The notes beneath the pieces are model-generated. The model had not been told where the DNA came from. It saw nothing but the letters and a program-made list of their open reading frames with translations, and ran no database searches. From the IMG/VR virus record IMGVR_UViG_3300024999_000034, positions 96,001 through 160,000 of that record: a DNA stretch of 64,000 nucleotides. The stretch is one strand, 5' to 3'. A program made the translations under genes and the position numbers. Source of the stretch: a virus. This document shows, piece by piece, positions 3,580 through 64,000 of the stretch; positions within the stretch are counted from its first letter, which is position 1; every line of letters begins with the position of its first letter.

Positions 3580-4257
3580 ATGGCAAAGAAAGCAGAAATT
3601 TTTACAAAAGAATGTAAAGAGTGTGGAACTCCTGCTATCAAAAATTCTATTATTTGTACTGAATGCGGTGCAGAACTTAAATCTTCTAAGGGAATGGGAG
3701 TAGTACAGCCAATACGCGATAAGGCAAAGATTGAAGAAATGAAAGTTTACTTAAAATCTCATTCTCTTAGAGATTATACTCTTTTTATTCTAGGTATTAA
3801 TTCTGCATTAAGAATATCTGATTTGCTTAATTTGAAAGTATCTGATGTTTATGATGAAAACGGAAAAGTGCGAGAAAGGATTTTGGTTAAAGAAATCAAA
3901 ACTAGCAAGTCTAAAAATTTCCCTTTTAATAACAGTGTGAAATCTGCTTTAAATGAATATTATCATACAATAAAACCTGCTCAGACTGTTCTATTTGCTT
4001 CTCGTAAAGGCGATGAGAGTATTACTAGGCAACAGTCACATCGTATCATTAACGAGGCAGCTAAGGCATGTAATATTAAAGAACCCTGCTCAAATCATTC
4101 CCTTAGAAAAACATTTGCCACAGCTCTGTATGAAGCAGGAGTAGATTTAACACGTATTCAAGCTCTGCTCAATCATTCTTCACCAAAAGAAACCATCCGT
4201 TATATTGGCCTCAATCAATTACAGAATGATCAGATTTATTTAAATTTAAATTTATAA
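3580..4257 (+). CDS. Small tyrosine recombinase/integrase with N-terminal double Zn ribbon
   Basis: Full catalytic set: ALRISD (R), EIKTSK (K), NHSLRKT (HxxR), LNHSS (H), IRYIG (Y); CKEC..CTEC at N-terminus. Confidence 0.92.
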   Translation: MAKKAEIFTKECKECGTPAIKNSIICTECGAELKSSKGMGVVQPIRDKAKIEEMKVYLKSHSLRDYTLFILGINSALRISDLLNLKVSDVYDENGKVRERILVKEIKTSKSKNFPFNNSVKSALNEYYHTIKPAQTVLFASRKGDESITRQQSHRIINEAAKACNIKEPCSNHSLRKTFATALYEAGVDLTRIQALLNHSSPKETIRYIGLNQLQNDQIYLNLNL

Positions 4258-12151: not shown

Positions 12152-14254
12152 ATGAACAATTTAAAAATTAAAGCTTTTATTAAACCAAAATTTGATAAAC
12201 ATAATAGTTTTGATTATGGTGGATTTGATGTAGGTGAAGGTACTCCGTACAAGATTGTATCTATTAATTTTAATAGACGATCTATTACAGTTCACGAACC
12301 TAAATGGATTGATTATATGGCATTTTTAGTTGATATTGAACATGGAAGAACTACATCTGGATTTTGCGGATATACAACCAATGACTATTCATTTGATGAT
12401 ATTGAAATACAGTCCATAGATATTGATGGTAATGTATTATCTGAACGTGAAATGCAGAGTATGAGAGATATTGCAGAAAATGAACTTAGGTTAATGAATG
12501 AATATTGAGCAATTAAAACACAACTTTTAATTGAGAGTGGGTAATATGATGAAATATAAACAAGTTATTAAATATTTTACAAAAGAACTAAATAGAGAAT
12601 TAACTGAAGAAGAATGCAATATTGTTAAAATATCTTTTAGTTTGGGAGAACAAAATATGTTCGATCAAATGATAGATGAAGAATATTCAATAAATAATTA
12701 AAATTAAAAAAAGGATGATGAACACAATAATAAATAAAGAAAATAATCTATCAACCAAAATTCATAATGCCCTACTGCTTTGTCATCCAGACGATAATAT
12801 AGTAATTGAACTAGATTACTATGAACTTTCTAAAATTTACTCTACATTAAAAGCACAAGAATTATACGATGCTACTTTAGAAAAATGTTTAATGGATGGA
12901 TTTGATAAAGTTGATAATACGATTTCAATTGAAAAAGATAATGATATTAAAACCTTAAATGATAAATTCTTTAAAAGAGTTGATAAAAGCATTGAAGATA
13001 AATTAACATTAAAATATGGGGAGGTTACACAATGAGAAAAGGGCAAAGAGGTAAGTTCATAGGTCATAAAAATTATGATGGTGATTTACAAGGAGGAGAA
13101 TTTTTCACAATTACATATGTTGATGAATATTTTCCAGAAGAAAAGAAATGGTTAATTGAGGTTGAATTGGATACAGGAGAAACTACATTCTTATTAAGTG
13201 ATATGGTTGAAATGTCTACTGAAGAAAGTGATTTAATGACGTTAAAGATATTGGTTGATAAATATCCGGAGCAAGCTAAGTTTTATATAAAATTATTAGG
13301 ATAATTTAAATTCGTTCTTTGCTAGGAAAATAGAAAGGAAGTAATTTAAATGAAAGACAACAAAGAACTATTTATGAAAGAATATTTATGCAAATTGGTT
13401 GAACCATCCGAAGGATATCAAGAAGCATATAAATTATGGGTTAAATATCATTATGAATGTGAAAGATTTGACAAATTTGTTTGTACGGGAGGCACAGATG
13501 AATATGGATTTGTTAAACCAAGTGATATGCACGAAAGACTTTTAATTAATAGAAATTCTTCAAACTTAATAAATGATTTATATACAAAAATAAAAATAAT
13601 TGGAATTAGTAGTGAAGATTTAGAGAAAGCCAAAAGAGATGTAAATAGATTGACATGTAAGGGGTTAGAAGAAGAGTATAGGAGGTTATTTATATTACAG
13701 ATCAAGATAAACTAAACATTAAAGAAAAATATCAAAATTTAAAAGAATGTTATCAACACAATCCAGTAGCATTTTATGAAGATTTATGTCCAGAAATTAA
13801 GCTTCTACCATATCAAAAGACATTCTTAAATGCAATGATGTCAAAACAAAATGATTTTTATTATGTCAATCCTTATACGACACATAGAAGATGGTTATCA
13901 AATATGAGATTAGAATTAATGAAATTAATGCAAATGGATTTTACAGTATTGAGTCCTGGTAGTAGAGATGATTATGAAAAAGGTGTATTGGTTAAGACGG
14001 TAAAGAATAAGAAAGGAAGTAGTAAATAAATGAAAATGACAGATGAAATGTTCTTAGCTCTTAATTTTAAAAGAGAAAGTACCTACTGGCATTATCTAGA
14101 ATATAAAGGAACTTATCATGATATTAAAGTGAATTACAATGCTAATAAAGATATAGAACTTGAAGAAGTATTAAAAAAATTAAAAAGTGCATGGGTTAAG
14201 GAAGCTGAAGACAATCTAAGATATAGTTTTAGGAGTTTACTTGGTATAAAATAA
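12152..14254 (+). other. Run of small hypothetical phage ORFs
   Basis: 12152, 12715, 13032, 13350, 14030 and others with RBSs. Confidence 0.65.
12509..12534. repeat. 9-8-9 palindromic gene-boundary site
   Basis: GCAATTAAA-acacaact-TTTAATTGA immediately after stop at 12508. Confidence 0.65.
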
Positions 14255-14460
14255 ATTGTACTATACTAGATTAAATTCTTTATTTTATGGTAAATTGTAA
14301 GTATAGAAACGTGATTATAGCCTTGTTTTTGAATTTATATAATATTGAAAGTGGGTGAGTTTTTATGTTAAATCATAAATATTATAATCAGTGGCATTGA
14401 TTGTGAATTAATAAAGCACAAATAAAATAATAGATAAAATAAAGGAGTAGATAATATTTA

Positions 14461-15237
14461 ATGGCAAAAGTTAAGAAAGATGAAAATGGTTTAGTGGTTA
14501 CATATGAACAAAGTAGAGAGTCTATAGTAAAAGGTAATTCATGGGTTTATACTGATAGTTTAAATTTAGCTAAGACTATGATAGTAGAACACAAAGAAGC
14601 TCTAAAAAAGATAAGAAAAGTGTTGGCAGAATACAAAATATCAACGGGGGAAGATGCTCCACCCGTCACCGAAATACAAGAATACATATATAAACACACT
14701 GATTTCACATATGCAATCAATTATTATAAAGATGCTAAAGGAGAAATGAGACCATATTATAAATTATCAAAAGATTTATTAACTTTAGTAATGTTCTCAT
14801 TTCAAACAGAAAGAGCAAAAGAATTTAGATTACTTTATATAGCAAAATTCAACGCAATGGAAAAAGAACTAAATTGGTATAATGCTAGATACTTGGGCAT
14901 TGTTACAAGAAATTATATGACTGATTGTATCAGGGATTATTACGATGGAAATCAATCTAAAGAAAATCCATACGTAGTATTTACAAATTTAGTTTATTCA
15001 ACATTATATGGTTATGATGCTTATAAATTAAGAATGATACATAAATTACCCAAAGGCGAAAATATAAGACCTTGGTTATCGGACGAAGATGTTAAGATTG
15101 TTGATAAAATGGAGCAAGAAGTTGGGACTCTTATTTCTTATGGAATATCATTGAAGGAAATTAGGTCTATGATCGGTAAGAAACATGGAAGCAATGATAA
15201 GAGAGAATTAGTTTTATTGAGTGAGAAAAGAAAATAA
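14461..15237 (+). CDS. Rha-family phage regulatory protein
   Basis: DSLNLA..EHKEALKKIR..YYKDAKGEMRPYYKLSKD..YIAKFNAMEKEL Rha pattern. Confidence 0.8.
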   Translation: MAKVKKDENGLVVTYEQSRESIVKGNSWVYTDSLNLAKTMIVEHKEALKKIRKVLAEYKISTGEDAPPVTEIQEYIYKHTDFTYAINYYKDAKGEMRPYYKLSKDLLTLVMFSFQTERAKEFRLLYIAKFNAMEKELNWYNARYLGIVTRNYMTDCIRDYYDGNQSKENPYVVFTNLVYSTLYGYDAYKLRMIHKLPKGENIRPWLSDEDVKIVDKMEQEVGTLISYGISLKEIRSMIGKKHGSNDKRELVLLSEKRK

Positions 15238-37494: not shown

Positions 37495-38179
37495 AGTGAG
37501 AAAGTAGTGAATTTTACATGAAGAAAAAATATGAGTATGATATTGGTGATGGTTTTAAATTTGTTTTAGAAGCAAATTCTCAAGAAGAAGCTGATGAACA
37601 ATTAAAAGGTTATGATAAGTTTTTTAAAGATTTTGGTAGAGTTACAAAAGTAATTCTAAATGATATGGTAGATGAATGAGATTTAGGAGGTAAAACAAAT
37701 GGCATCAATAACTCTCAAAAACATAGCAGAGCATATTATGCTAGGTAATGCTAAAACCAGTGAAGAATTTAGTGATAAGATTAAAGGTCAATGGGAATAT
37801 AGGAGTAATAAAAGTATTTCTGATGTAAATTTGGCAGTACAGAAAGGATTAAAACTAGGTAAAGGTAAATCAGAAAGGGAAATCGAATGTGTGGCTATGT
37901 ATCTGGAAAGTGTTTTGAAGAAAGTTAAGGTTGTTAAGAAGGAGAGTGTTAAAGATGTTAAAATTTAAAATTGGAGACGAAGTGACAGTTGGTAAAATCG
38001 AATTTAAATTTGATGAATCTGAGGGCGAAGGAAGATTTATTGGTGGTGTTGGAGTAATTATTGAGGCAGTAGAAGGGATATCTCCTTATCAGATAAAGTT
38101 CTATGATAAAGGAACTCAGAAGGTTAATGAGAATATGGGAAGTAGATTATTTGAGGAATCTGAGTTATTTTTCTTGTAA

Positions 38180-38578
38180 TTGGCATCAAAAAGTAAATTA
38201 AATGGAGGAATTATTGAAACGATGGATGGAAGAAGCATTGCTATATTAAAACTATATAATCAGCGTAATTACTCATTAAGTTGCTATGATATTGGAATTA
38301 TTTTAGATGCACCTTCAATATCTATTTCAAATAATGTTGTTGAGTTACGTGAATTAGAATATATTGATGTTGATATGTTAGAAAAAGACAAACTACATGA
38401 TAATTTTATTAGTTTGGACACAAAACTTCATATAACTCAATCTGGAAGATCATATTTGTTTGATTTAAAAGAAGATAAAAAGAATTTTATCATAAAATCT
38501 ATCACAATTCCATTTATTGTTTCTATTGTAAGTTCTATAATTACAACTATAATTACTATAATGTTAAAGAAACCATAA
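38180..38578 (+). CDS. Hypothetical protein with C-terminal transmembrane helix
   Basis: wHTH-like N-terminus (HITQSGRSYL) plus hydrophobic tail IPFIVSIVSSIITTIITIML. Confidence 0.55.
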   Translation: MASKSKLNGGIIETMDGRSIAILKLYNQRNYSLSCYDIGIILDAPSISISNNVVELRELEYIDVDMLEKDKLHDNFISLDTKLHITQSGRSYLFDLKEDKKNFIIKSITIPFIVSIVSSIITTIITIMLKKP

Positions 38579-38655
38579 AATCAAACCACTTCAATATCTA
38601 GTTTCGAAGTGGTGAAAAATTAATTAATAAATTATAATAAAGGAGAAATAAAAAT

Positions 38656-39498
38656 TTGGGTAGGAATAGTAGAAATAATAAACAATATATAATGAATCAT
38701 AGAATTAATAATGGAATCATAGAAAGAAGGTGCAGTAAATGCCAAGATTGGTTAGTAGAAGATATAAATAATTATTATATGAGAAACAAGAAGAAACCAG
38801 AGTTAGGATATTCACCAGAATGTAAAAAATGTGTTATTGAAAGATCAGCCATAATACAAAATAATAATAAAGAAAGGTCAGACCAATATAAAAGAAACTG
38901 GCGTAAGAAGAATAAAGAAAAAGCAAAGAAACAAAGTGCGGATTGGCATCAAACTCATAAAGAAAGAAGACAAGAAGACCTTAGACGTTTTGTAAGATTA
39001 AATCCAGAAAAAGTGAAAGAATATGGTCAAAATCATAGAATACACGATATAACTAAAAACGAGTGGGAATGTTGCTTGATAATTTTTGATCATAGATGCG
39101 TATATTGCGGAATATCAGAAGAAGAAAGTTTAAAAATATATAAACAAGTTTTACATAAAGATCATTATGATCCAAATGGAGTTAATAATCTAAGTAATGC
39201 AGTACCAGCTTGTAAAATGTGTAATAGTTTTAAACATCAAGACGATGCAGAAATATGGTTTAGATCACAAGAATTTTTTGATGAAGATAGTTTGGAGCAT
39301 ATTAAATGGTGGATTACAGAGGGTTATAAAGAATTTATTGAAGATAAACCACCCTACAGAATAACTAAGAAACAAAATGAAGATAATAAGAAATTCCACT
39401 GGGAATTATGGACAGTGGATGAGAAAAGAAATATAGTGGAGTGTATACATAGGGTAGATAAGAAGAAGGATTTAGATTTGACATTAATACATAATTAA
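38656..39498 (+). CDS. HNH endonuclease, paralog 3 (TTG start)
   Basis: CVYCG..LHKDH..NNLSNAVPACKMCNSFK. Confidence 0.85.
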   Translation: MGRNSRNNKQYIMNHRINNGIIERRCSKCQDWLVEDINNYYMRNKKKPELGYSPECKKCVIERSAIIQNNNKERSDQYKRNWRKKNKEKAKKQSADWHQTHKERRQEDLRRFVRLNPEKVKEYGQNHRIHDITKNEWECCLIIFDHRCVYCGISEEESLKIYKQVLHKDHYDPNGVNNLSNAVPACKMCNSFKHQDDAEIWFRSQEFFDEDSLEHIKWWITEGYKEFIEDKPPYRITKKQNEDNKKFHWELWTVDEKRNIVECIHRVDKKKDLDLTLIHN

Positions 39499-50809: not shown

Positions 50810-51724
50810 ATGAGTAAACTAATCATGATGTGTGGCCTTGTGGCGAGTGGAAAATCTTTTGTGGCAAATCAGTTAGCATTAAAAGAAAATGCAGTGATTC
50901 ATTCCTCTGATGAATTGAGAATTGAGTTATTCGGAGATGTTAATGAAGTTGATAAAAATGGAGAGGTATTTCAAGAATTGCACAAAAGAATTAAAGATGA
51001 TTTAAAGAAAGGTAAAAATGTTATATATGATGCAACTAATTTAAATCACAAGAAGCGTAAGGGATTCTTGGAAGAGTTAAAGAAATTGGATGTACGAAAA
51101 GAATGTATCTTTGTAGCAACTCCATATGAAAAATGTCTTGAGCAAAATAGGAAAAGAGAAAGAAAAGTTCCAGAGTATGTAATAAAAAGAATGTATATGA
51201 GTGTAAATATTCCTCAGTATTATGAGGGATGGAATTCTATTGAAATTGTATATAATGTAGATGGATATGATTTTGATACTAATTTATTATTCAATGGTGA
51301 GAATGGATTGAATAAAATAGATCAACACAACCCATATCACACTTTAACCATTGGTAAACATTGTCTTAAATGTTTTCAGATATGTGAGCAATTACTAGAT
51401 GACTTTGAATTGAATATGGCTGCAATGTATCATGATATAGGTAAGAGATTCACTAAAACATTTAAGAATTCTAAGGGTGAAGATACTGAGATCGCACATT
51501 ATTATCAACATCATTTAGTTTCAGCATATGATAGTTTGTTTATTTTCAATAAGCAAGGGTTTGAACCAGAAACGATTCTAAAGACTACTAATTACATACA
51601 GTGGCACATGATGCCATTCTTTCTTGATACAGATAAGTCCAAAAATAAATTTATTAATTTAGTTGGTCAAGAATTTTATGATAAATTACTAATTTTGCAT
51701 GAAGCAGACAAATTGGCAAAATAA
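50810..51724 (+). CDS. Polynucleotide kinase (AAA_33 P-loop) fused to HD phosphohydrolase
   Basis: CGLVASGKS, SSDELR, DATN, R..RER.VPEYVI; C-terminal H..AAMYHDIGK..AHYYQH..LHEAD. Confidence 0.88.
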   Translation: MSKLIMMCGLVASGKSFVANQLALKENAVIHSSDELRIELFGDVNEVDKNGEVFQELHKRIKDDLKKGKNVIYDATNLNHKKRKGFLEELKKLDVRKECIFVATPYEKCLEQNRKRERKVPEYVIKRMYMSVNIPQYYEGWNSIEIVYNVDGYDFDTNLLFNGENGLNKIDQHNPYHTLTIGKHCLKCFQICEQLLDDFELNMAAMYHDIGKRFTKTFKNSKGEDTEIAHYYQHHLVSAYDSLFIFNKQGFEPETILKTTNYIQWHMMPFFLDTDKSKNKFINLVGQEFYDKLLILHEADKLAK

Positions 51725-55062: not shown

Positions 55063-55446
55063 ATGTTGCAACAACAATTTAATCGGGGAGAGATATGGTT
55101 AGTTGATCTTCCATTTACAGGTAATTCAATTCAAGGTGGAGGCATTAGGCCAGTTGTGTTGTGTAGTAATAATATGGCAAATCTACATAGTCCAATTTTA
55201 CATTATGTTCCTCTTACAACTCGTAAGAAACCATCCCTCCCTACTCACACAGAAATTGACACAGATAGCGGAATAATTAGAAAATCTACTGTACTATGTG
55301 AACAAGTTATGCCATTACCAAAAACGGCTTTCAAAGAATGTATAGGATTCTGCAATGAAAAAGTAATGGATAAGGTTGATTTTTGTCTAGCTGTGCATTT
55401 AGGTTTGGTTAAACTTGTGAATAGAAATAATGTTGCTTATGGTTAA
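55063..55446 (+). CDS. mazF: MazF/PemK endoribonuclease, no recognisable MazE
   Basis: RGEIWLVDL..QGGGIRPVV..N..VPLTT..LPTH..CEQV; catalytic Arg and Thr present. Confidence 0.9.
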   Translation: MLQQQFNRGEIWLVDLPFTGNSIQGGGIRPVVLCSNNMANLHSPILHYVPLTTRKKPSLPTHTEIDTDSGIIRKSTVLCEQVMPLPKTAFKECIGFCNEKVMDKVDFCLAVHLGLVKLVNRNNVAYG

Positions 55447-55475
55447 TAAAAATAAGAAGGAGAGATAAATAATTA

Positions 55476-57080
55476 TTGGGTAAAAATAAAACTACAGAGC
55501 AGTATAGACAAGAGTTAGAAGAATATAATTTAAAATATAATACAAAAATAAAGTTAAAGAATGGAGTTGAATATAATGGTGCTAATACTAAAATATTACA
55601 TATTTGTTCGTGTGGTAAAGAGTGGTTAGTTTCACCTTCAGGCGTTATAAATAGTAGTTCGAAAACAAGTTGTGGTTTATGTTATACGTTTGCAGAAAAA
55701 GGAATCGATAATCTAGGGTATAATTTTTTAGAAAAATATTGGGATTATAAAACAAATAACGAATTAGGAATTGATCCTTGGAAAATTAGTTGTAGTTCTG
55801 GAAAAGATGTTTATATATTTTGCCAAGAGAAAGATTATCATGGAAGTTATAAAGTACGTTGTGTTGATTTTAGTAATGGAAGTAGGTGTGGTTATTGTCA
55901 AGGATACTATTTGGTTCATCCTTTAGATAGTTACGGACAGTATTTAATTGATTCATTTGGAATAACCGCAATAGAACTGTATTGGGATTATAATATAAAC
56001 ACTGTTGATCCTTGGAAGATTACAAAACAATCAAATAAGATGGTATATATTAAATGTCAGAGGAAATATTATCATGGAAGTTATGGCATCAAGTGTAATG
56101 ATTTTGTAAGAGGTGATAGATGCGGATATTGTGGAGGTAAAAAAGTACATCCATTGGACAGTCTAGGAACACTACATCCAAAATCACTAGAATTATGGTC
56201 AAATATAAACAAAAAATCACCATATGAATATATGTCTGGAAGCGATATGGAAGTTTGGTTTAAATGTGGCAACAAGAGACATGAAGATTACCAAAAAAGA
56301 ATATATAATGCAGTAAATTGTAATTTTAGATGTCCAGTATGTTCTCAAGAGCAAAAAGAATCTGTCATGGCCTCCACACTAAAGCAGGTATTAAGATATG
56401 AATACAGTCATACAAAATGGGAATATGACGCAGGATTTAAAATAGATAATAATATTAGTAGGTATGATATTTATGTTCCAGAATTGAATAACTTATTAAT
56501 AGAATGCCAAAGTGAATATCACGATGATGAAAAACATATTATTAACGATCAACTTAAAAAACAGTTTGCTATTGATAATGGATATGAATTTATAGCAATA
56601 GATAAAAGAGATTTTACAATAATAGAAATACTGAAATTTTTTATACCACATATAGATAAAATCCCTGATTATATACAAATAAATAAAAATACAACAAGAA
56701 GCTGGGACATAGAAAACGCTCAAAAACTACTAGATACTGGTCATACATACATAGATATAGCCAATATATTAGAAACGTCAGCTACAGCAATACGTGCAAG
56801 TGTAGGCGATAATGGTTTAATTAAACCAAATAATTATATTTTCCAAGGTGCAAATATAGTTTGTTTATCTATGGATAATAATTTAATAAAAACATATAAT
56901 TCATGTACTTCTGCTGCCAAAGATTTAGGAAAAGCAAATGGAACAAGTATTAGTTCATGTTTGACTAAAAAGCCTCGTTCAGATACTGGGAAAATACGTG
57001 AAACAGCTTTTGGTTTTAAATGGATGTATCTAGTAGATTATGAGAATATGGTCAAAGATCAAAATAATAAACCTCCGTAG
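55476..57080 (+). CDS. Zn-ribbon repeat (DUF4379-like) endonuclease with C-terminal NUMOD1-like domain (TTG start)
   Basis: YWDY..N..DPW..CQ..YHGSY..RCGYC repeats; YDIYVP..IECQSEYH; KTYNS..AAKDLG..ISSCL..TAFGFKW. Confidence 0.75.
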   Translation: MGKNKTTEQYRQELEEYNLKYNTKIKLKNGVEYNGANTKILHICSCGKEWLVSPSGVINSSSKTSCGLCYTFAEKGIDNLGYNFLEKYWDYKTNNELGIDPWKISCSSGKDVYIFCQEKDYHGSYKVRCVDFSNGSRCGYCQGYYLVHPLDSYGQYLIDSFGITAIELYWDYNINTVDPWKITKQSNKMVYIKCQRKYYHGSYGIKCNDFVRGDRCGYCGGKKVHPLDSLGTLHPKSLELWSNINKKSPYEYMSGSDMEVWFKCGNKRHEDYQKRIYNAVNCNFRCPVCSQEQKESVMASTLKQVLRYEYSHTKWEYDAGFKIDNNISRYDIYVPELNNLLIECQSEYHDDEKHIINDQLKKQFAIDNGYEFIAIDKRDFTIIEILKFFIPHIDKIPDYIQINKNTTRSWDIENAQKLLDTGHTYIDIANILETSATAIRASVGDNGLIKPNNYIFQGANIVCLSMDNNLIKTYNSCTSAAKDLGKANGTSISSCLTKKPRSDTGKIRETAFGFKWMYLVDYENMVKDQNNKPP

Positions 57081-57135
57081 AATACATAAATAAATAATTA
57101 AAATTAGATATAGTAAAGGAGAGATACAAAAATAA

Positions 57136-57834
57136 ATGGATTTAATCACACTAGCAACAAAAACGACATACAAATTATTCAAAGTAGATGAAGTAATTGA
57201 CTCATTTGATCAAAAACACTTTAATATTGTTAAGATAATAGTAAAAAAATATAGGAATATGGACATTGAAGCAACAAAATCTCAAGTACAACAATTAGCC
57301 GAAAACGGAATTAGGAATTTTTGGAGTGAGTTATTTAAGTATATAATTGTATTATCAATTGCAAGTTATTTTAATATATTTACTCCAACTTTCTTTGTAA
57401 TGAATGCTTTCTCTGTCCTCAGAGCATTGGCTGGTGGCGTACATATGTCTACCATAGGAAAATGCTTTGCAATGATGGTTCTATTCTTCTTATCACTAGG
57501 ATATTTAATTAGTATATTACATATAAATACGTTAGTATTAGTCGTAGGAATATCATTGGGGTCTATATGGAGCATATACATAGCTAAAAAATATTCTCCA
57601 CAGGAAAGACCAGATAAATCAGATAAAGATTGTGATCACGGCAATATAAAAAAGTATAAGACAATAAAGTTTATTAAATTCTCGTATATAATTAGTATGA
57701 TATTAATATTGTTTACTCAAAAATACATAATTGGGATTAGTATATTTACAGGTGTTTTACTTGAGATGGTAACAATTACACCTAGAGGAACGAGATTTTT
57801 TCAATGGATAGATAGTAAGAAGGTGACACTATGA
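57136..57834 (+). CDS. agrB: AgrB-family peptide-cyclising membrane protease
   Basis: LRALAGGVHMSTIGKC (catalytic His and Cys), YSP..RP, multiple TM helices. Confidence 0.9.
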   Translation: MDLITLATKTTYKLFKVDEVIDSFDQKHFNIVKIIVKKYRNMDIEATKSQVQQLAENGIRNFWSELFKYIIVLSIASYFNIFTPTFFVMNAFSVLRALAGGVHMSTIGKCFAMMVLFFLSLGYLISILHINTLVLVVGISLGSIWSIYIAKKYSPQERPDKSDKDCDHGNIKKYKTIKFIKFSYIISMILILFTQKYIIGISIFTGVLLEMVTITPRGTRFFQWIDSKKVTL

Positions 57835-58457
57835 TCGAAGTGGTAGTGTTTACATTCGTTTTTGCATGGTTCAATGGTTATAAGTGGAAGGTATTAAATT
57901 TGTTTAAGCATTGGAGCATATACCCCATTGCACTTACTTGTGTTGCTCATATTTATATTATATATCTTATGGTTCATGGTCAATATTGGTTTATGGAATA
58001 TGCCAAATACATAAAAATTGTATCTATATTACTTTACTTAGGTTTGATTTGTAAATATAAGTTATTCGACATATCTATCTTTAAGAAAATTAATATTAAA
58101 GAGAACCCTATATTAACCCCTTTTACATCTCCTGTTTCTTTAGGTGTATTATGCATGGGTATAGGATCTGTCTTAAATATTATTGCTATGAAATTTAATG
58201 GTTCAAAAATGCCTGTTTTTGCGAGTGTAAGTTTTGGTACAGGATATTCAAAAATAGATATGTTTGATAAAATGTTACAGTATAATGACTTTCATGTATT
58301 TGGAAACAGTGCTACACATTTGATATTTTTAACCGATTTCATAGATATTTTTACATCCATTATGAGTATCGGTGATGTATTAACTAGAATATTTGTTGTT
58401 TTAGTAATATATTACTCAATAAAAGTATGTAATCATAAAGTAATAAATAATATTTAG
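57831..58457 (+). CDS. DUF5317-like multi-pass membrane protein
   Basis: G..LN..A..NG.KMPV..H......L..L.D.I..SIGD pattern; overlaps agrB stop. Confidence 0.7.
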   Translation: MIEVVVFTFVFAWFNGYKWKVLNLFKHWSIYPIALTCVAHIYIIYLMVHGQYWFMEYAKYIKIVSILLYLGLICKYKLFDISIFKKINIKENPILTPFTSPVSLGVLCMGIGSVLNIIAMKFNGSKMPVFASVSFGTGYSKIDMFDKMLQYNDFHVFGNSATHLIFLTDFIDIFTSIMSIGDVLTRIFVVLVIYYSIKVCNHKVINNI

Positions 58458-58486
58458 TTGACAAACAGTGAAGGGAGGTGTATACT
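58458..58486 (+). promoter_or_regulatory. Consensus SigA promoter for the receptor-like gene and agrD
   Basis: TTGACA-17 bp-TATACT. Confidence 0.8.
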
Positions 58487-58525
58487 TATCACATAGCAAA
58501 GAAAAGTTTAGAGGAGTAGATTATT

Positions 58526-59314
58526 ATGTTGGAAAATATCATTTATTGTGCGTTGAGTTGTATTTTTATCACGATCCCAGAAGACATTTTTCTAATAATA
58601 TTAACGCTAAGATTTATGGGAAGAAAAGAGATGTTGGATTTATACAATATTAAAGAAAATTTAATTTCGATTTTAAAAATTGTTATCCCTTCGGCATTGT
58701 CTTTAAATCTTTTAAATTTTATAATAATGACACCAACTTCAATTAACAAAATAATATCTTATACTATGTTGTATTTGTTATTGGTATACATATTAAAAAA
58801 GAAATCTTTTATTGAATATCCAAAATTATATCAAAAAGCTTTTCTATATTTTATCTTAAGTATATTAGTAATAATAGCTATTGAAATTATTACCTTGCCA
58901 ATTATATTTAAATTAGTTAATAAAACATATAAAGAAATTCAGGTAAATTATTATTTAGTCATAATATGTTCTCTGTCTTCTAGAATTATAAATCTAATAA
59001 TATTGTTCACTATTTTTATGAAGAAGAATAGTAAATTTCAAATAAGTATTGGTAATTATATATTTAATAATAAATTTTTCACAAGATTATTGATTGGTGT
59101 CACGGCAGGATTGGTTGTATCTGAGGCATACTTTGTCAAGTTAATTTTGTGGAATAACTTTTTAAATATCATTCCAACAATTTACGAACAATTGTTGTTA
59201 GTTATAAGTTTTACTTTTTTAGTACCAAGTTTGATAATTTCAATAGTTTATTCTTGTATAAATTATTGTGTTATGATTATTAATAGTGAGAAGCAGACTT
59301 TCAGAAATGACTGA
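58526..59314 (+). CDS. Multi-pass membrane protein resembling an AgrC/VirS sensor domain, without a kinase domain
   Basis: About 7 hydrophobic segments; between agrB and agrD; paralog of 60533; no H-box or HATPase motifs. Confidence 0.6.
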   Translation: MLENIIYCALSCIFITIPEDIFLIILTLRFMGRKEMLDLYNIKENLISILKIVIPSALSLNLLNFIIMTPTSINKIISYTMLYLLLVYILKKKSFIEYPKLYQKAFLYFILSILVIIAIEIITLPIIFKLVNKTYKEIQVNYYLVIICSLSSRIINLIILFTIFMKKNSKFQISIGNYIFNNKFFTRLLIGVTAGLVVSEAYFVKLILWNNFLNIIPTIYEQLLLVISFTFLVPSLIISIVYSCINYCVMIINSEKQTFRND

Positions 59315-59353
59315 TCTGATTTTTCAAATACATTATAGAAGGAGGTGAAAATA

Positions 59354-59461
59354 ATGAAAAAGAATATCGTAATTGGTTTTGTAGCAATCGCTGCTTTTGC
59401 AGCAGTAATGTCTTCAATGGTAGTTTGGCATCAATCGGAAACTCCTAGTTGTATCGCGTAG
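59354..59461 (+). CDS. agrD: AgrD-like cyclic-lactone autoinducer propeptide (missed by ORF track)
   Basis: MKKNIVIGFVAIAAFAAVMSSMVVWHQSETPSCIA; RBS AAGGAGGTG; HQ.E.P tail typical of clostridial AgrD. Confidence 0.82.
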   Translation: MKKNIVIGFVAIAAFAAVMSSMVVWHQSETPSCIA

Positions 59462-59477
59462 TACATATCCATGATCT

Positions 59478-59507
59478 AAGGAGGGAGTATTTATACTCTC
59501 TCCTTTT
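59478..59507 (+). terminator. Intrinsic terminator after agrD
   Basis: AAGGAGGGAGTAT-tt-ATACTCTCTCCTT followed by TT. Confidence 0.7.
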
Positions 59508-59535
59508 GAATTATAAAATAATTTTTATAATACTA

Positions 59536-59565
59536 TTGACATATTATCCACTGTTGTAGTATAGT
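59536..59565 (+). promoter_or_regulatory. SigA promoter for the HTH-MazF gene
   Basis: TTGACA-18 bp-TATAGT. Confidence 0.65.
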
Positions 59566-59617
59566 AATATAAAGTAAGAAATTACGAAATATTATATTTA
59601 CAAATTATGAAGGGTGG

Positions 59618-60439
59618 ATGATTAATATGTTTTTCAATACAAAAAAGAGAAATGAGACTGTTAAATCAAATGAGGCAAAGGATTTCAAGAAGCTTGCAAA
59701 CTTAGTAAAAATAGCCGTTGGAAGCAATACTATTTCAGAGTTTGCAAACAGATGTGGTATTCCAAATTCAGCTAAAAGTATTGCTATGATTACTCAAGAA
59801 AAAATAACTACATACCCAGAAGTCGGTTTGCTTAAAAAAATTGCTTTGGGTTCTGAATTTCGAGTATCTTTTAATGATTTAAGGATTGCATGTGGTTATG
59901 ATTTAAATGATACAGGGATTGATCTTAGAGGTGTAAAAGCTATGAGGGGTTGGATTGCCTTATGTAACTATGGGAACGTTTTAGACTCAGAACAATCTGG
60001 AATTAGGCCTTCCTTAATAATTTCCAATAATATTGGGAATGAGAGAGGGACTATTTTGATGGCAATTCCTTTATCTAGTAAAATAATGAAAAATACTATG
60101 CCGACCCACGTCAGAATTGGCCCCAAAGACTGCGGATTGGCACAAGAGTCAGAAATTTTAGTTGAGCAGATGCGTGTAGTATCAAAAAGTCGTTTAATGA
60201 TTGATGGGTTCATTCAACCAATTTGTGAATGTCCTGAAGACATACTCCGTAAGGTAGAAATAGCCATCATGAAGGAAACTGGTATGGTGAATACTAGAGC
60301 CAATGAATCTACAGTAGATAGATTCCTTGATAAACTTAATGAATATGTAAATAAAGCAGAAGAAAGTCGTATCAATCACATTCAAAGCAATAATCGCAAC
60401 ACAATTCCACAACAACAGAGAGTAGCATCTTTTGCATGA
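59618..60439 (+). CDS. XRE-type HTH fused to a MazF/PemK domain
   Basis: N-terminal TISEFANRCGI..YPEVGLLKKIA..LRIACGY; C-terminal RG..SEQSGIRPS..SNNIGN..AIPLSS..PTHV..L..ES.IL.EQMR. Confidence 0.85.
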   Translation: MINMFFNTKKRNETVKSNEAKDFKKLANLVKIAVGSNTISEFANRCGIPNSAKSIAMITQEKITTYPEVGLLKKIALGSEFRVSFNDLRIACGYDLNDTGIDLRGVKAMRGWIALCNYGNVLDSEQSGIRPSLIISNNIGNERGTILMAIPLSSKIMKNTMPTHVRIGPKDCGLAQESEILVEQMRVVSKSRLMIDGFIQPICECPEDILRKVEIAIMKETGMVNTRANESTVDRFLDKLNEYVNKAEESRINHIQSNNRNTIPQQQRVASFA

Positions 60440-60444
60440 ATATA

Positions 60445-60497
60445 ATATAAATGGTCATTATATGTCCTTCTTATTATAATATAATGACCATTTATAT
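60445..60497. promoter_or_regulatory. Perfect 19-bp inverted repeat containing a possible promoter (or terminator)
   Basis: ATATAAATGGTCATTATAT-15 nt-ATATAATGACCATTTATAT; TGGTCA(60452)-17-TATAAT(60475). Confidence 0.65.
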
Positions 60498-60532
60498 ATA
60501 CCAAAAATAAAAATAAAAAGGAGTACGCCTAT

Positions 60533-61333
60533 ATGCAAGCAATTACAAATGCCATCCTAAACACCATATTCGTTGGCCTCCCTGAAGAAATGTTCATTGT
60601 AATAATCACATTATCACTTCTAAAAATCAATGATCTGCTAGACATCTTAATGTGGAAACGTAGTCTAACATGGATTATGCTCACAGCATTACCCGTAGCA
60701 ATAATGGCAAATATCTTCAAATATATTATCATAGTACCAAAACAAAATTCTATATTGTCAATTATGTTATTTATGATAATTCTTATGCAATACATAGTCA
60801 TCACCAATAGTTTCAAAGTAAATTTTTCACTAATATTTAAAACAGCAATCTACACAATCGCAAGCTTTGTAATTGTAGGAATCATTGAATATGCTTACTG
60901 TCCACTTCTATTAGCATTATTAGAAAAACCATATAGTTTTTTCAATGATAATGTAATGTACAATATCCTATGGGCTATTCCAATCAAAATTCTACACTTA
61001 TGTATTGTTTCCTTAATTCTAGTGAGAAAAAATAGCAAAGTAAAAATTAATCTGTTTGACTCAATTATTAGAAATAAATTTATTGTTAGTGGTTTGTTGC
61101 TAATATTAGCAACCAGAGCATTAGTAGTTAATTATATCAATAAATTAGTGGAAAATAATAGCATCATGATTCAATTACAATTTATTGATGAATTAATTGC
61201 TATTGTTATAATCACATCAATTCCAGTAATATTTGTCACATGGTTATTAATGGTAATCAATCATTATTTATGTAAAGAGAAAATGGCTCTGTTGGTTTGT
61301 GAAGGAGTTAGTGGAAATGATGACGGTGAGTGA
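60533..61333 (+). CDS. Second AgrC-sensor-like membrane protein, kinase-less paralog of 58526
   Basis: IFVGLPEEMFIVIITL vs IFITIPEDIFLIILTL; shared K(I/F)Q/N(L/I)...I.N.F linker. Confidence 0.6.
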   Translation: MQAITNAILNTIFVGLPEEMFIVIITLSLLKINDLLDILMWKRSLTWIMLTALPVAIMANIFKYIIIVPKQNSILSIMLFMIILMQYIVITNSFKVNFSLIFKTAIYTIASFVIVGIIEYAYCPLLLALLEKPYSFFNDNVMYNILWAIPIKILHLCIVSLILVRKNSKVKINLFDSIIRNKFIVSGLLLILATRALVVNYINKLVENNSIMIQLQFIDELIAIVIITSIPVIFVTWLLMVINHYLCKEKMALLVCEGVSGNDDGE

Positions 61334-61406
61334 TAAATAAGGAGTGGAAAACGAACATTTCAGAATAATTTGTCGAACGTATGTACTATTTTTGTTATGA
61401 TAATCC

Positions 61407-61435
61407 TTGAATAGTGTTTTTATAGATGATATAAT
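61407..61435 (+). promoter_or_regulatory. SigA promoter flanked by TCCTTGA/TCAAGGA inverted repeat
   Basis: TTGAAT-17 bp-TGnTATAAT. Confidence 0.7.
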
Positions 61436-61515
61436 ATTATCAAGGAGGTATTAAAAGAATCTATAAATTATTTGTAGAAATTACCATAAATTAAAATTAA
61501 AGGAGAAGTGAGTAT

Positions 61516-61869
61516 ATGAATTTAGAAACTAACAACGAGGAATATTTATGGGTAATCAAAGATCAAGATGGTAACTTTGCTCACAGAAACAGTATTGGCA
61601 AGTCTGGTAAGAATACCTGCATATACATATCTTTTAGAACATTCTCTCCTGAGTGCAAGGGTTATATAAGTAAAGAAAGTGCTGAATTAGCCTTGCAAGA
61701 ATTAAACAGAAGAAAATCTATCATGAGATTACCAAATACATTCAATTTAGAATATAATATTTTAAGTAAGATGACTAAACTACATAGGGAATTTCAAGGA
61801 GAGAATATGGTCATATATGAAAAAACACATTCAAATATATTAAACTGTCCTGTATTAGAAGCAATCTAG
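61516..61869 (+). CDS. Hypothetical protein
   Basis: RBS AAAGGAG; own promoter and downstream hairpin. Confidence 0.65.
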   Translation: MNLETNNEEYLWVIKDQDGNFAHRNSIGKSGKNTCIYISFRTFSPECKGYISKESAELALQELNRRKSIMRLPNTFNLEYNILSKMTKLHREFQGENMVIYEKTHSNILNCPVLEAI

Positions 61870-61900
61870 ATTATTGTGTGCTTGATAGAAGAAATATAAA

Positions 61901-61933
61901 GAGCCACACTGGTCGCATCGATAAGTGTGGCTC
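61901..61933 (+). terminator. Hairpin, probable terminator
   Basis: GAGCCACACT / AGTGTGGCTC 10-bp stem. Confidence 0.6.
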
Positions 61934-61955
61934 ATATAAAAATAAGTATAATTTC

Positions 61956-61984
61956 TTGACATTAGAGTAATAATTAGATATACT
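61956..61984 (+). promoter_or_regulatory. Consensus SigA promoter for the repressor operon
   Basis: TTGACA-17 bp-TATACT. Confidence 0.8.
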
Positions 61985-62022
61985 GATATTAATATTATTT
62001 TAATGTGAAGGAGAGATATTTA

Positions 62023-63390
62023 ATGCTTAAAGAAAAATCAGTTGAGTTAATGCAAGAATTAAATCCATTGATCGTTAAATATTCTAGTAATGACAAGGTA
62101 AGAAAAATAATTTTAAATGAGTTTTCCAAAAGGAATATGAGTGGTCGGTTGGCACTATCTATTTTAAACGAGAAAAGAGTATTATCAACATTAGATATCG
62201 ATGAAGGGAAAGACTTGATATTATTATTTGTTTTTACTAGTGCAATGTACAATGCATTGACATTTAAAGAAGCAGATGATAAAGAACCTTTGGGAGAAAT
62301 AGAAGAGTCATTTAAAATAACTCTCGAAAACTATTTTACTGAAATTGAGATTGAAAGTCTATTAAACCACACATTTGAAAAAAAAGTTGATGAAAAAGAT
62401 GAGGCTATTGTTTTTCCAAAAATGAATTTGATTGCTCCTGGATTTTATTCTGGGTATATGTCTGGAAAACATTTTGCTGAATTAGATGCTGGAAATGAAT
62501 TCATCTATAATTTTAAAACCCAGCGTGATCCAATTATTAATGTATCTGGAATGAAAGAAATACATTTAAATAAGAAAAACGCAAAAGAAATTAGAGATGG
62601 TTTGCTTTCAGGCGATCAATTCCCAACTACTATAGTGGTAAATGTTCTTCGAGATGGATCAGACGAAATAATCTACAACGAAAAAAATGGAGACTTGACT
62701 ATTGTTTCAGGAACTAAAAACCTTGTTGACGGAATGCATAGAAAAGTGGGTAATAGCTTAGCCCTTGCTCTTAATCCAGATTTGCAATTTAATTGGTTGT
62801 TAGTTGTGATAAACTATAGCGAGGTTAGAGCGCAAAAATATATGGTTGAAATTAACAAGCAACAAAAAATGAAGCAGGAACATGTTGATAACATGGATAC
62901 TTCTAATCTTGGAAACATTGTTGTAGACAACATTAAAGATATTGACAACGCTGAATTCTCTGGGCATATTAAAGACAGCGATAAAGAACTAGAACATGGT
63001 GGTATGGTAAAAAAATCAACATTAGCAACTAGTATAGAAGAGTGTTACAAGGATAAACTAACTAATAAAATTGAAGCAAAAAAGATAGCAAAGCATATTG
63101 CTAATGTTGTAGATTATGTTATAGGATTACACGCAGAAGAGTTTATAGAGCATTCTGAAGCTACTAAGAAAGAAAGTTATATCAATCATAAGAATATGTT
63201 TGCAGGATATGTTGCCTTATCTGAAAGATTATATGAAGTAAAGGATTGGGAAGATTTATTAGAAGAAATTCTTAATCAAATTGATTTTAGTGTTAAAAAT
63301 TCTTTCTGGAAAGATATTGGAATATCAGATTCAGATATGAAAAAGTCTACCAGAAACAATTTATATAAATTCTTTCAGAAATTAGTTTAA
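62023..63390 (+). CDS. yopQ: SPbeta YopQ/SroE-like repressor (DndB/ParB-like DGQHR-type fold)
   Basis: NFKTQR..LVDGMHR..INKQ motifs; size about 460 aa; directly upstream of a YopR-like gene. Confidence 0.65.
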   Translation: MLKEKSVELMQELNPLIVKYSSNDKVRKIILNEFSKRNMSGRLALSILNEKRVLSTLDIDEGKDLILLFVFTSAMYNALTFKEADDKEPLGEIEESFKITLENYFTEIEIESLLNHTFEKKVDEKDEAIVFPKMNLIAPGFYSGYMSGKHFAELDAGNEFIYNFKTQRDPIINVSGMKEIHLNKKNAKEIRDGLLSGDQFPTTIVVNVLRDGSDEIIYNEKNGDLTIVSGTKNLVDGMHRKVGNSLALALNPDLQFNWLLVVINYSEVRAQKYMVEINKQQKMKQEHVDNMDTSNLGNIVVDNIKDIDNAEFSGHIKDSDKELEHGGMVKKSTLATSIEECYKDKLTNKIEAKKIAKHIANVVDYVIGLHAEEFIEHSEATKKESYINHKNMFAGYVALSERLYEVKDWEDLLEEILNQIDFSVKNSFWKDIGISDSDMKKSTRNNLYKFFQKLV

Positions 63391-63424
63391 TTTTTCTAAT
63401 ATTTATTTATAAGGGGTGTTTTAA

Positions 63425-64000
63425 TTGGTTATTAATGAAGTTAATAATGGGTTGCAAAATGAAGAGGTGGTATTTGAGGTTGATTCAGAAGTGAAAAAGG
63501 AATTTCTAGAAAAACAATTAAAGTCAACTAGAAGTTTCTACACTTATGTTCTCAAAAGAGCAGATGAATTTGAATCACAACTTGGGAAAAAGATTTACGA
63601 TTTTAATATTGAAGATCGCGATGAGATGTTGACTGTTCAGTTTAAGAATAAGAATAAATGGACGTTTCAATCTGCATTATCTCCTTTAAAAACTTATGTT
63701 GACTTCTGTATTTCTAAGAATTTAGTTAGACACAATGAAAACAGGTTTATGACTATTCTTCCGTCAGATTATGATGATTATGTTAGTGATCAAGCAAAAA
63801 ACAGTTCTTATATCCCTTTATCAGAATCCAGAGAATTTCAAAAAAGATTAGCAAATGATCAAGATAAATTAATCATTGAATTATCTAGTTTAGGGGTTAG
63901 GGGAAGAACTGAAAAAGGCAATACACTTGAAGAGTTTGTAAATCTCAAAGTAAAAGATATTAAGTGGAAAGATAAGGAATTATGGCTCACTAAAAACAAT
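63425..64000 (+). CDS. yopR: SPbeta YopR/MrpR/SroF-like integrase-fold repressor (5' part, runs off window; TTG start)
   Basis: Manual translation: KKEFLE..FESQLGKKIYDFNIE..YVDFCI..NDQDKLIIEL..GVRG..LEEFVNLKVKDI. Confidence 0.75.
   Translation, partial: MVINEVNNGLQNEEVVFEVDSEVKKEFLEKQLKSTRSFYTYVLKRADEFESQLGKKIYDFNIEDRDEMLTVQFKNKNKWTFQSALSPLKTYVDFCISKNLVRHNENRFMTILPSDYDDYVSDQAKNSSYIPLSESREFQKRLANDQDKLIIELSSLGVRGRTEKGNTLEEFVNLKVKDIKWKDKELWLTKNN

Follow-up and report, generated by a model that had tools for sequence, protein, structure and literature searches.

Organization of the agr-type locus

The window analysed here is a stretch of 64,000 bases, bases 96001–160000 of the IMG/VR record IMGVR_UViG_3300024999_000034, which is itself a linear metagenomic phage record of 180,838 bp with an estimated completeness of 85%. 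At window positions 55063–64000 it carries a cassette of agr-type peptide signalling genes that lies directly upstream of genes resembling yopQ and yopR of phage SPbeta. The cassette is real, conserved and phage-borne; it is of a kinase-less Agr type, displays pherotype-like diversity and is located at the lysogeny control point in a family of large clostridial phages. The region contains the following features.

55063–55446, plus strand: MazF1, 127 amino acids; PemK/MazF in Pfam (4e-18), phrog_1936 (2e-23)
55476–57080, plus strand: HNH homing endonuclease, 534 amino acids; DUF4379 (1.4e-15), NUMOD1 (4e-5), phrog_559 (3e-28)
57136–57834, plus strand: AgrB, 232 amino acids; AgrB in Pfam (2.8e-24)
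57831–58457, plus strand: DUF5317 membrane protein, 208 amino acids; DUF5317 in Pfam (9e-16)
58458–58486, plus strand: promoter-like site before mem1-agrD, TTGACA-17-TATACT, 11 of 12 positions; a consensus match only
58526–59314, plus strand: mem1, seven-helix membrane protein, 262 amino acids; no family match
59354–59461, plus strand: agrD, 35 amino acids (38 from GTG 59345); TIGR04223 (19.1 bits)
59478–59505, plus strand: terminator-like hairpin after agrD, a 12-bp stem and then UUUUGAAUU
59536–59565, plus strand: promoter-like site before the HTH-MazF gene, TTGACA-18-TATAGT, 11 of 12 positions; a consensus match only
59618–60439, plus strand: HTH (helix-turn-helix)-MazF fusion, 273 amino acids; PemK_toxin (5e-21)
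60445–60497, no strand assigned: inverted repeat of 19 bp without mismatch, spacer of 15 nt, located behind the HTH-MazF gene and ahead of mem2
60533–61333, plus strand: mem2, 266 amino acids; paralogue of mem1
61516–61869, plus strand: orf117, 117 amino acids; no known family
61956–61984, plus strand: promoter-like site before yopQ-yopR, TTGACA-17-TATACT, 11 of 12 positions; a consensus match only
62005–63390, plus strand: YopQ (SroE)-like protein, 461 amino acids; DndB (2.7e-10), phrog_5732 (2e-59)
63425–64000, plus strand: YopR (MrpR/SroF)-like protein, first 192 of 348 amino acids; MrpR_N_CB (6e-14), phrog_5830 (3e-29)

The genes thus follow one another on the plus strand in the order mazF1, HNH endonuclease gene, agrB, DUF5317 gene, mem1, agrD, HTH-MazF gene, mem2, orf117, yopQ-like and yopR-like, and the start of the DUF5317 gene overlaps the stop of agrB. 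This gene content had been proposed in an initial annotation of the window, and every gene named there is a real open reading frame (ORF) on the plus strand. The profile checks suggested at the same time, run against Pfam, PHROG and NCBIfam, gave a match for each of the families AgrB, AgrD, PemK, DndB and MrpR. Module genes in relatives of the phage were mapped by iterated profile searches.

A strong promoter had also been assigned to each block of genes. This stands in so far as the intervals in front of mem1, the HTH-MazF gene and yopQ hold the three best sigma-70-like sites (11 of 12 positions each); the total of 72 promoter-like sites is not in excess of the 68.9 ± 9 found in shuffled sequence. 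The hairpin after agrD has a predicted RNA folding energy of −18.1 kcal/mol (z −4.25), which none of 200 shuffled sequences equalled. The arms of the 19-bp inverted repeat are 100% complementary, and the repeat, which overlaps a promoter-like site with 10 of 12 matches, folds at −21.7 kcal/mol (z −6.3); it could be an operator or an RNA hairpin. When direct or inverted repeats were sought as operators common to the three promoters, only AT-rich matches at chance level were obtained, the 19-bp palindrome excepted.

The phage, a virus of anaerobic Clostridia, is a large member of the broad SPbeta-like group, as the initial annotation had it, because it encodes YopQ- and YopR-like proteins and a YonO-type RNA polymerase and has the strand layout with late genes on minus and early genes on plus. 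The polymerase (941 amino acids) matches SPbeta-group and clostridial phages, the late genes occupy the minus strand up to about 44 kb of the window, and the early genes lie on the plus strand beyond. The window has a G+C content of about 28% and further encodes a portal protein and several HNH homing endonucleases. The endonuclease gene between mazF1 and the cassette is a selfish insert, and it is not present at that spot in the relatives L016, L019, L020 and L027. Paralogous HNH/NUMOD genes are scattered in the phage, with copies at window positions 55476–57080 and at genome positions 13848–15218, 37516–38910 and 62434–63882. A short tyrosine recombinase (225 amino acids, window 3580–4257, Phage_integrase 1.3e-32) is the sole clear recombinase found in the record; a serine recombinase was not found in it.

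Conservation of the cassette and linkage to yopQ-yopR

Relatives were collected with several queries. A search with AgrB yielded a single close contig of viral origin (L004), HMMER run exhaustively with both membrane paralogues gave 135 cluster representatives, a profile of the phage-type members led to 16 more IMG/VR contigs, and identity look-ups added L009 and L005–L008. Reached via AgrB or the membrane family, a cassette with mem1, agrD, HTH-MazF and agrB was found in 17 other phage contigs, and in 16 of these, representing 14 distinct cassette versions, yopQ-yopR is located directly downstream. The initial annotation had made its proposal depend on this linkage, which is kept with two types of repressor genes. 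Among GenBank phages the cassette was not found by megablast of the 9-kb region or by tblastn of AgrB and mem1.

All four core genes are present in each of the 16 non-duplicate cassettes. Thirteen of them have the DUF5317 gene immediately before mem1, the module begins with mazF1 in 11 of the 16 non-duplicate loci, and a second mem gene after agrB occurs in five cassettes; the mem2 of the window is not followed by an agrD. The usual position of agrB is after the HTH-MazF gene, and in the window and in L004 it is shifted to a position before the DUF5317 gene.

The YopQ-like protein was matched by tblastn to yopQ of SPBc2 (6e-16) and to 24 Bacillus SPbeta-group records. The yopR-like gene runs 471 bases beyond the window and encodes 348 amino acids in full (L002 8426–9472); its match to Phage_integrase is weak and below the cut-off, and the product is a predicted integrase-fold repressor. 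In SPbeta, MrpR/YopR is the master repressor (PMC10516654), in agreement with the premise of the initial annotation, and the order of yopQ and yopR is the same as in SPBc2. Downstream of the yopR-like gene follow a 134-aa ORF, a 138-aa ORF and a gene for an HNH-repeat protein. The 138-aa ORF has no family match in this record, and its orthologue in L009 shows a faint match to HTH_26. Of the 15 non-duplicate loci with yopQ-yopR, 14 have a homologue of orf117 before yopQ or after yopR; the orf117 protein has no Pfam or PHROG match.

The yopQ-yopR pairs (window 62005–64000, L004, L013–L027) fall into two types that are mutually just 24–29% identical. In type one, orf117 stands in front and the orf134, 138-aa ORF and HNH-repeat genes stand behind; in type two an orf117-like gene is found behind the pair. 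These types assort independently of the cassette and have been exchanged between cassettes that are otherwise near-identical. The window and L004, for example, share 90% identity in AgrB, 87% in DUF5317 and 83% in HTH-MazF, as compared to 62% in mem1, 53% in mem2 and only 24–29% in yopQ/yopR, and their peptides differ at three ring residues. In L016 and L018 the DUF5317, HTH-MazF and mem2 proteins are 82–84% identical, with mem1 at 42% and yopQ/yopR at 26–29%. For L019 and L027 these values are 97% for yopQ, 95% for yopR, 92% for HTH-MazF and 67% for mem1, with one change in the ring. The converse exchange, with similar repressors and divergent cassettes, occurs as well. Because cassette and repressor types have been exchanged repeatedly, the adjacency, which outlasted this exchange, is more than simple inherited synteny, though the phages form one broad lineage.

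Predicted products and their possible roles

AgrB is a predicted membrane cysteine peptidase/cyclase that would process AgrD, and all 16 orthologues retain the motif GG-x-H-x6-C, which contains the two catalytic residues, His and Cys. AgrD scores 19.1 bits against TIGR04223, for which the cut-off is 19, and is 35 or 38 amino acids long depending on whether translation starts at ATG 59354, which is preceded by AGGAGG at 6 nt, or at GTG 59345. Its predicted ring is Ser-Met-Val-Val-Trp (SMVVW), followed by a tail that begins with HQSETP. Every phage mem1 is trailed within about 60 bases by such an AgrD-like ORF, and all phage AgrD sequences consist of Ser-x4 and then a tail of the form [HYNS]Q[PS]xx[PL]. 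The four residues behind the ring Ser are hydrophobic or aromatic, and no two of the 16 non-duplicate cassettes have the same ring; among the rings are SMVVW (window), SAIIW (L004), SWLFS, SMFFS and SAMWT. From ATG 59354 onward, the AgrD of the window differs from that of L004 by the three ring residues and two tail residues, with two further differences upstream of this codon. Such ring diversity appears to be of the pherotype kind.

Some staphylococci make Ser-linked autoinducing peptides (AIPs), and the enterococcal gelatinase biosynthesis-activating pheromone (GBAP) is likewise Ser-linked. Because a Ser occupies the ring position, as in these peptides, the AgrD product is predicted by analogy to contain a lactone pentapeptide ring. 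It is very probable, judging from the AgrB and AgrD sequences, that the cassette makes a secreted cyclic peptide. The DUF5317 protein is a candidate for a role in maturation or export; when 13 orthologues were combined into a profile, no solved structure was matched, and a full-text literature search found no paper naming the family.

The mem1 protein is modelled by AlphaFold2 (AF2) as seven long helices, with a predicted local distance difference test score (pLDDT) of 95.3 and a predicted template modelling score (pTM) of 0.90. Its predicted topology, with loop Lys/Arg counts of 13 versus 2 read from the sequence, places the N-terminus outside and the C-terminus inside. The mem1 and mem2 proteins are 32% identical (E 1e-19). 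The one nearly invariant feature of the family as a whole is a Pro-Glu pair in helix 1; the phage orthologues additionally show full or almost full conservation of a few charged residues within the membrane (E120, R153). Neither protein matched a Pfam family, and 82 members scanned gave no meaningful Pfam result. A sequence profile of mem1 run against the PDB yielded only a weak match to the RibU riboflavin transporter (E 0.008), which is probably compositional. By fold, the best Foldseek hit in the PDB had an E-value of 0.6, a wide VIA-align search reached a Z of 8.6 with helical bundles, which is within the noise for helical models, and the ESM Atlas returned by fold and features only the protein's own cluster of mostly viral, unnamed members. 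A CPBP/Rce1-type protease, to which one member had a Pfam match of 0.036, was ruled out for mem1 since the family has no conserved His.

The initial annotation had described both membrane proteins as kinase-less and AgrC-like. The first description is borne out: all 135 representatives are at most 326 amino acids long, none of them is fused to a kinase, and neither HATPase_c_5 (PF14501) nor HATPase_c (PF02518) matched anywhere in the 180-kb record, with the controls matching. The second is not supported, as no similarity to AgrC sensors was seen in Pfam, PDB, fold or profile searches. Solved AgrC sensors did not surface in the fold searches with mem1, and hhalign of the 82-sequence family against a shallow alignment of AgrC from C. 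difficile and phiCDHM1 gave a probability of 0.5% (E 0.11).

In bacteria, the mem family occurs in cultured as well as uncultured Clostridia, including metagenome-assembled genomes of Eubacteriales, Acetivibrionales and Clostridiaceae, and is present in 8 of 399 sampled genomes of the class (about 2%). The bacterial proteins are 270–343 amino acids long and have an extra C-terminal helical tail. They are nearly always followed by an AgrD with Cys or Ser in the ring, in roughly half of the loci agrB is a neighbour, and no kinase, LytTR or MazF was found in the annotated flanks of 6–8 kb. These agrB/mem/agrD loci are L038–L051 and L054–L065, and some genomes have two copies. The phage cassette derives from a bacterial agrB/mem-agrD locus of this previously undescribed type to which an HTH-MazF gene was added.

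A role of mem1 as the peptide receptor can be argued from its pairing with agrD and from its divergence. Where close relatives differ in their rings, the cassette protein that has diverged furthest is in most cases mem1. Near-identity of mem1 is confined to L022 and L027 (91%), whose rings are one conservative change apart and whose AgrB proteins are 69% identical, and a partial Mantel test of ring against mem1 gave a rho of 0.21 with a permutation p of about 0.02. Moreover, no other obvious sensing gene is present, because matches to AimR, a kinase or LytTR are absent from the record; for AimR the SPBc2 protein was used as the query (with no positive-control genome run), and LytTR (PF04397) had no match in the record, which is 85% complete. 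In view of these sequence comparisons we slightly favour the receptor role for mem1. The mem2 protein is different in that it does not track the phage's own peptide, because mem2 of the window and that of L013 are 89% identical despite only 27% identity in mem1 and different rings. A second sensor, directed at a foreign peptide, would agree with this.

Of the two MazF proteins, MazF1 is a stand-alone orphan endoribonuclease of the PemK/MazF type, as predicted from sequence. In the 10 relatives matched by pattern scan, both xRP and [ST][ST] are preserved, and the window copy reads GIRP and PLTT at these places. A conserved MazE-like partner was not detected: a 69-aa overlapping ORF in the window belongs to no family, and most relatives have no upstream ORF of at least 30 amino acids and none that is conserved. 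The MazF domain of HTH-MazF belongs to the Bacillus/Staphylococcus MazF lineage, since a profile of 16 orthologues matches the MazF structures from these genera (3e-35) and Foldseek aligns the modelled domain to B. subtilis YdcE/MazF with a TM-score of 0.90. Its catalytic Arg is invariant in all 16 orthologues and the Thr site reads [ST][ST][KR]. In the AF2 model a five-helix N-domain precedes the MazF barrel, and the protein ends in a long helix and a conserved tail. By language-model features alone the N-domain resembles HTH_3/HTH_26 of the Cro/C1 type (0.84–0.87), which provides a lead to a Cro/C1-like HTH. The short tail, with the consensus Q-Q-V-A-Y/F-A, comes after a disordered stretch and could be a degron or docking motif. 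In all 16 cassettes the HTH-MazF gene follows agrD, and its loci contain no separate antitoxin gene.

Complex prediction for mem1 with HTH-MazF gave an ipSAE of 0.38, compared to 0.00 for the best control, with at least 89% of contacts agreeing between runs and a partner pLDDT of at least 72. Of 80 solved complexes, 58 attain the mark used for such predictions, as do 2 of 110 mismatched pairs, and at an ipSAE of 0.60 or below there are just 7 of the 80 solved complexes together with both passing mismatches. The models thus lend weak support to a direct contact, and output of the signal via HTH-MazF is conceivable with the odds somewhat against it. Elsewhere in the window (50810–51724) lies a gene for a 304-aa protein with an AAA_33/Zeta-toxin-like kinase domain and an HD phosphohydrolase domain, possibly an RNA repair enzyme of the polynucleotide kinase/phosphatase type, which if true would be of interest in a phage with two MazF RNases.

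In view of the above, we propose a kinase-less phage Agr-type peptide module that may feed the neighbouring SPbeta-type lysogeny switch, and give this a probability of about one in two. The receptor role, the MazF effectors and the control of lysis and lysogeny are what we infer from gene order and co-variation. In the proposed mechanism AgrB would remove the conserved tail of AgrD and cyclise the peptide, and the leader would be cut by a further peptidase, for which DUF5317 is a candidate. The peptide would build up outside as infected or lysogenic cells increase. Its ring would be bound by the cognate mem1, which has its N-terminus outside and its C-terminus inside, and binding would alter either the hold of mem1 on HTH-MazF or the activity of HTH-MazF. 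The latter could shift the yopQ-yopR operon or lytic transcripts through DNA binding, RNA cleavage, or both. High peptide levels would then favour lysogeny, as MazF activity does in phi3T, and mem2 would act as a second receptor for a foreign peptide. Whether such a system biases lysis versus lysogeny is, on sequence grounds, an evenly balanced question. The complete scheme, with a Ser-lactone pentapeptide, a stand-alone seven-helix receptor that holds or releases a DNA-binding/MazF fusion setting the switch, and a mem2 that eavesdrops on competitors, is speculative and unlikely to hold in every part.

Several observations weigh against the proposal. As to mem1, it has no detectable similarity to AgrC sensors or any receptor, its co-variation with the ring is modest, and L013 and L016 have near-identical rings yet mem1 proteins of 44% identity. 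In five of six pairs the divergence of mem1 is not enriched in the predicted outer half, the complex with HTH-MazF is weak by the tool's own calibration, and the layout of the bacterial ancestors, which have no MazF or regulator, fits a biosynthetic trio equally well. As to the switch, no specific protein-protein match with YopQ/YopR is indicated, because the cassette recombines freely with respect to repressor type, and with all phages in one broad lineage the conserved adjacency is partly plain inherited synteny. The exception to this adjacency is the set of short Logan contigs L005–L008, which carry the core cassette without yopQ/yopR; there a 112-aa ORF, a SpoIIID-like HTH protein and an MCM/AAA ATPase are encoded downstream, and a weakly CI-repressor-like ORF and a peptide deformylase upstream. 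A temperate lifestyle is suggested by the YopR-like gene and one tyrosine recombinase, and the record is a linear metagenomic contig of 85% completeness.

One alternative is that the cassette only makes the peptide. In this case mem1, perhaps with DUF5317, would be a maturation or export factor comparable to MroQ, the peptidase that processes the leader in S. aureus, a host AgrC-type kinase or other host receptor would read the signal, and the phage would manipulate or join host quorum sensing without a sensing pathway of its own. According to a preprint (bioRxiv 10.1101/516906), AIP maturation in S. aureus requires a second membrane peptidase. The compact bacterial agrB/mem-agrD loci, with flanks that hold no kinase, LytTR or MazF gene, have the look of biosynthetic operons, a mem gene is translationally close to agrD everywhere, and the lack of receptor-like homology in mem1 agrees with this alternative as well. 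However, a role as leader peptidase is disfavoured because mem1 diverges (62%, against 90% for AgrB) between the window and L004 while the AgrD leader from ATG 59354 is unchanged and the tail near-identical. The family also has no conserved catalytic set of His, Ser or Cys residues, and a mem2 copy lacking its own agrD fits an extra receptor better than an extra peptidase. We regard a purely biosynthetic cassette as an improbable explanation, though it is the main rival of our proposal.

A second alternative of similarly low probability accepts real peptide signalling but assigns it another output, such as host sporulation or metabolism, superinfection exclusion, or kin recognition among lysogens. 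The adjacency to yopQ-yopR would then be inherited synteny and each of the MazF genes would serve on its own as a toxin or in anti-defence. That the phage contigs all belong to one lineage, that cassette and repressor types assort independently, and that L005–L008 have a cassette among other neighbours would all agree with this, as would the agr genes of phiCDHM1, which adjoin lysis genes and not a repressor; MazF1 is a typical orphan toxin for which defence or counter-defence is possible. Yet HTH-MazF lies inside the cassette in 16 of 16 versions, including the set without yopQ/yopR, a constancy that would be difficult to account for in an unrelated gene. The adjacency to yopQ-yopR persists through repeated module exchange, and an unrelated agr cassette is found in the lysogeny module of a Brevibacillus phage too.

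The remaining alternative, an antimicrobial AgrD-like peptide by which lysogens would kill non-lysogens, with the membrane proteins as immunity factors and mem2 as an orphan immunity gene, is very unlikely: tight peptide/membrane pairing, hypervariability and unpaired membrane copies are typical of bacteriocin-immunity loci, but the AgrD family model match, the conserved tail and the presence of AgrB speak against it, a five-residue ring is very small for a bacteriocin, the cassette has no export ABC transporter, and the known products of AgrB/AgrD systems are signals rather than toxins.

If the complete scheme outlined above holds, it would be the second known family of phage-phage communication and the first to rely on an RNase and a cyclic peptide. 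Another system, of different mechanism and in SPbeta-like phages of Clostridia, would imply that communication between viruses arose more than once at one and the same regulatory position of the genome. It would couple a quorum signal directly to a MazF RNase carried by the phage, reminiscent of the connection to MazF in phi3T, and offer a large natural set of peptide/partner variants for studies of specificity and cross-talk. It would also provide a function for a widespread orphan membrane family and for clostridial kinase-less agr loci.

Comparison with known systems

To our knowledge, arbitrium is so far the sole phage peptide system shown to set lysis versus lysogeny, and it is limited to Bacillus-group phages with RRNPP-type receptors. 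The agr cassette resembles the arbitrium genes of the SPbeta/phi3T group in that a small phage peptide with many variants is encoded upstream of YopQ/YopR-type genes in an SPbeta-like genome. The analogy drawn by the initial annotation between the two slots holds: in SPBc2, aimR-aimP (yopK/yopL) is located four genes upstream of yopQ-yopR, and the agr cassette lies directly upstream of this pair. The only small peptide gene in the slot is of the AgrD type with AgrB alongside, and no AimP-type gene is found there. Whereas arbitrium uses a linear hexapeptide imported by the oligopeptide permease Opp, the peptide here would be of the AgrB-processed, predicted cyclic type, and in place of AimR, a cytoplasmic receptor with tetratricopeptide repeats that has no match here, the candidate sensor is a membrane protein. 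A link to MazF is common to both. The MazF of the host is inactivated by AimX and YosL, and its activity brings phi3T back to lysogeny (PMC10769878), in accordance with the premise of the initial annotation that arbitrium acts partly through host MazEF. In arbitrium this is the MazF of the host, whereas in the present phage MazF is phage-encoded and fused to a DNA-binding-like domain.

The canonical agr systems (agrBDCA of S. aureus and the clostridial loci) share with the cassette the His and Cys of AgrB and an AgrD composed of a leader, a five-residue ring and a conserved tail, and in their specificity groups, as in the cassette, both the peptide and the adjacent membrane protein are hypervariable. 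They differ in having an AgrC histidine kinase and AgrA/LytTR, neither of which was matched in this record, and a Cys in the ring where all phage copies have Ser; mem1 is without detectable homology to the AgrC sensor.

Agr genes on phages are not without precedent. The agr3 locus of C. difficile phage phiCDHM1 comprises agrB, agrD and a full AgrC (PMC3901668), just as the initial annotation had stated. phiCDHM1 is a temperate phage of a clostridial host and has agrB and agrD, as does the present, putatively temperate phage. Its locus differs in encoding a 453-aa AgrC with HATPase_c_5 and in adjoining an endolysin gene, not a repressor; its AgrB is too distant for detection by tblastn.

A further precedent, which the initial annotation had missed, is formed by the agr cassettes of the Brevibacillus phages Davies, Emery and Abouo, in which one or two membrane proteins without kinase domain are encoded (2014, PMC3901668). 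In phage Davies the cassette (L030 26243–28283) lies between the integrase and cI/cro genes and encodes two paralogous 220-aa membrane proteins, AgrB and a 39-aa ORF. It thus shares with the present locus an AgrB, a small AgrD-like ORF, a pair of paralogous kinase-less membrane proteins and a position in the lysogeny region. However, neither of its membrane proteins, gp44 and gp45, is matched by the mem profile, MazF and YopQ/YopR are absent, and Davies is a small myovirus of 46 kb. The Davies cassette is an independent case of agr genes in a lysogeny module.

The bacterial agrB/mem-agrD loci have a member of the same membrane family directly before AgrD, often with AgrB adjacent, but their mem protein is longer, their ring begins with Cys or Ser, and they lack HTH-MazF, DUF5317 and the repressor genes. 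The papers searched do not describe these loci, and a full-text literature search found no paper on an agr-type cassette in SPbeta-like clostridial phages or on the mem family. The locus combines two known kinds of system, agr signalling and phage peptide communication; what is new is the membrane family and the proposed wiring.

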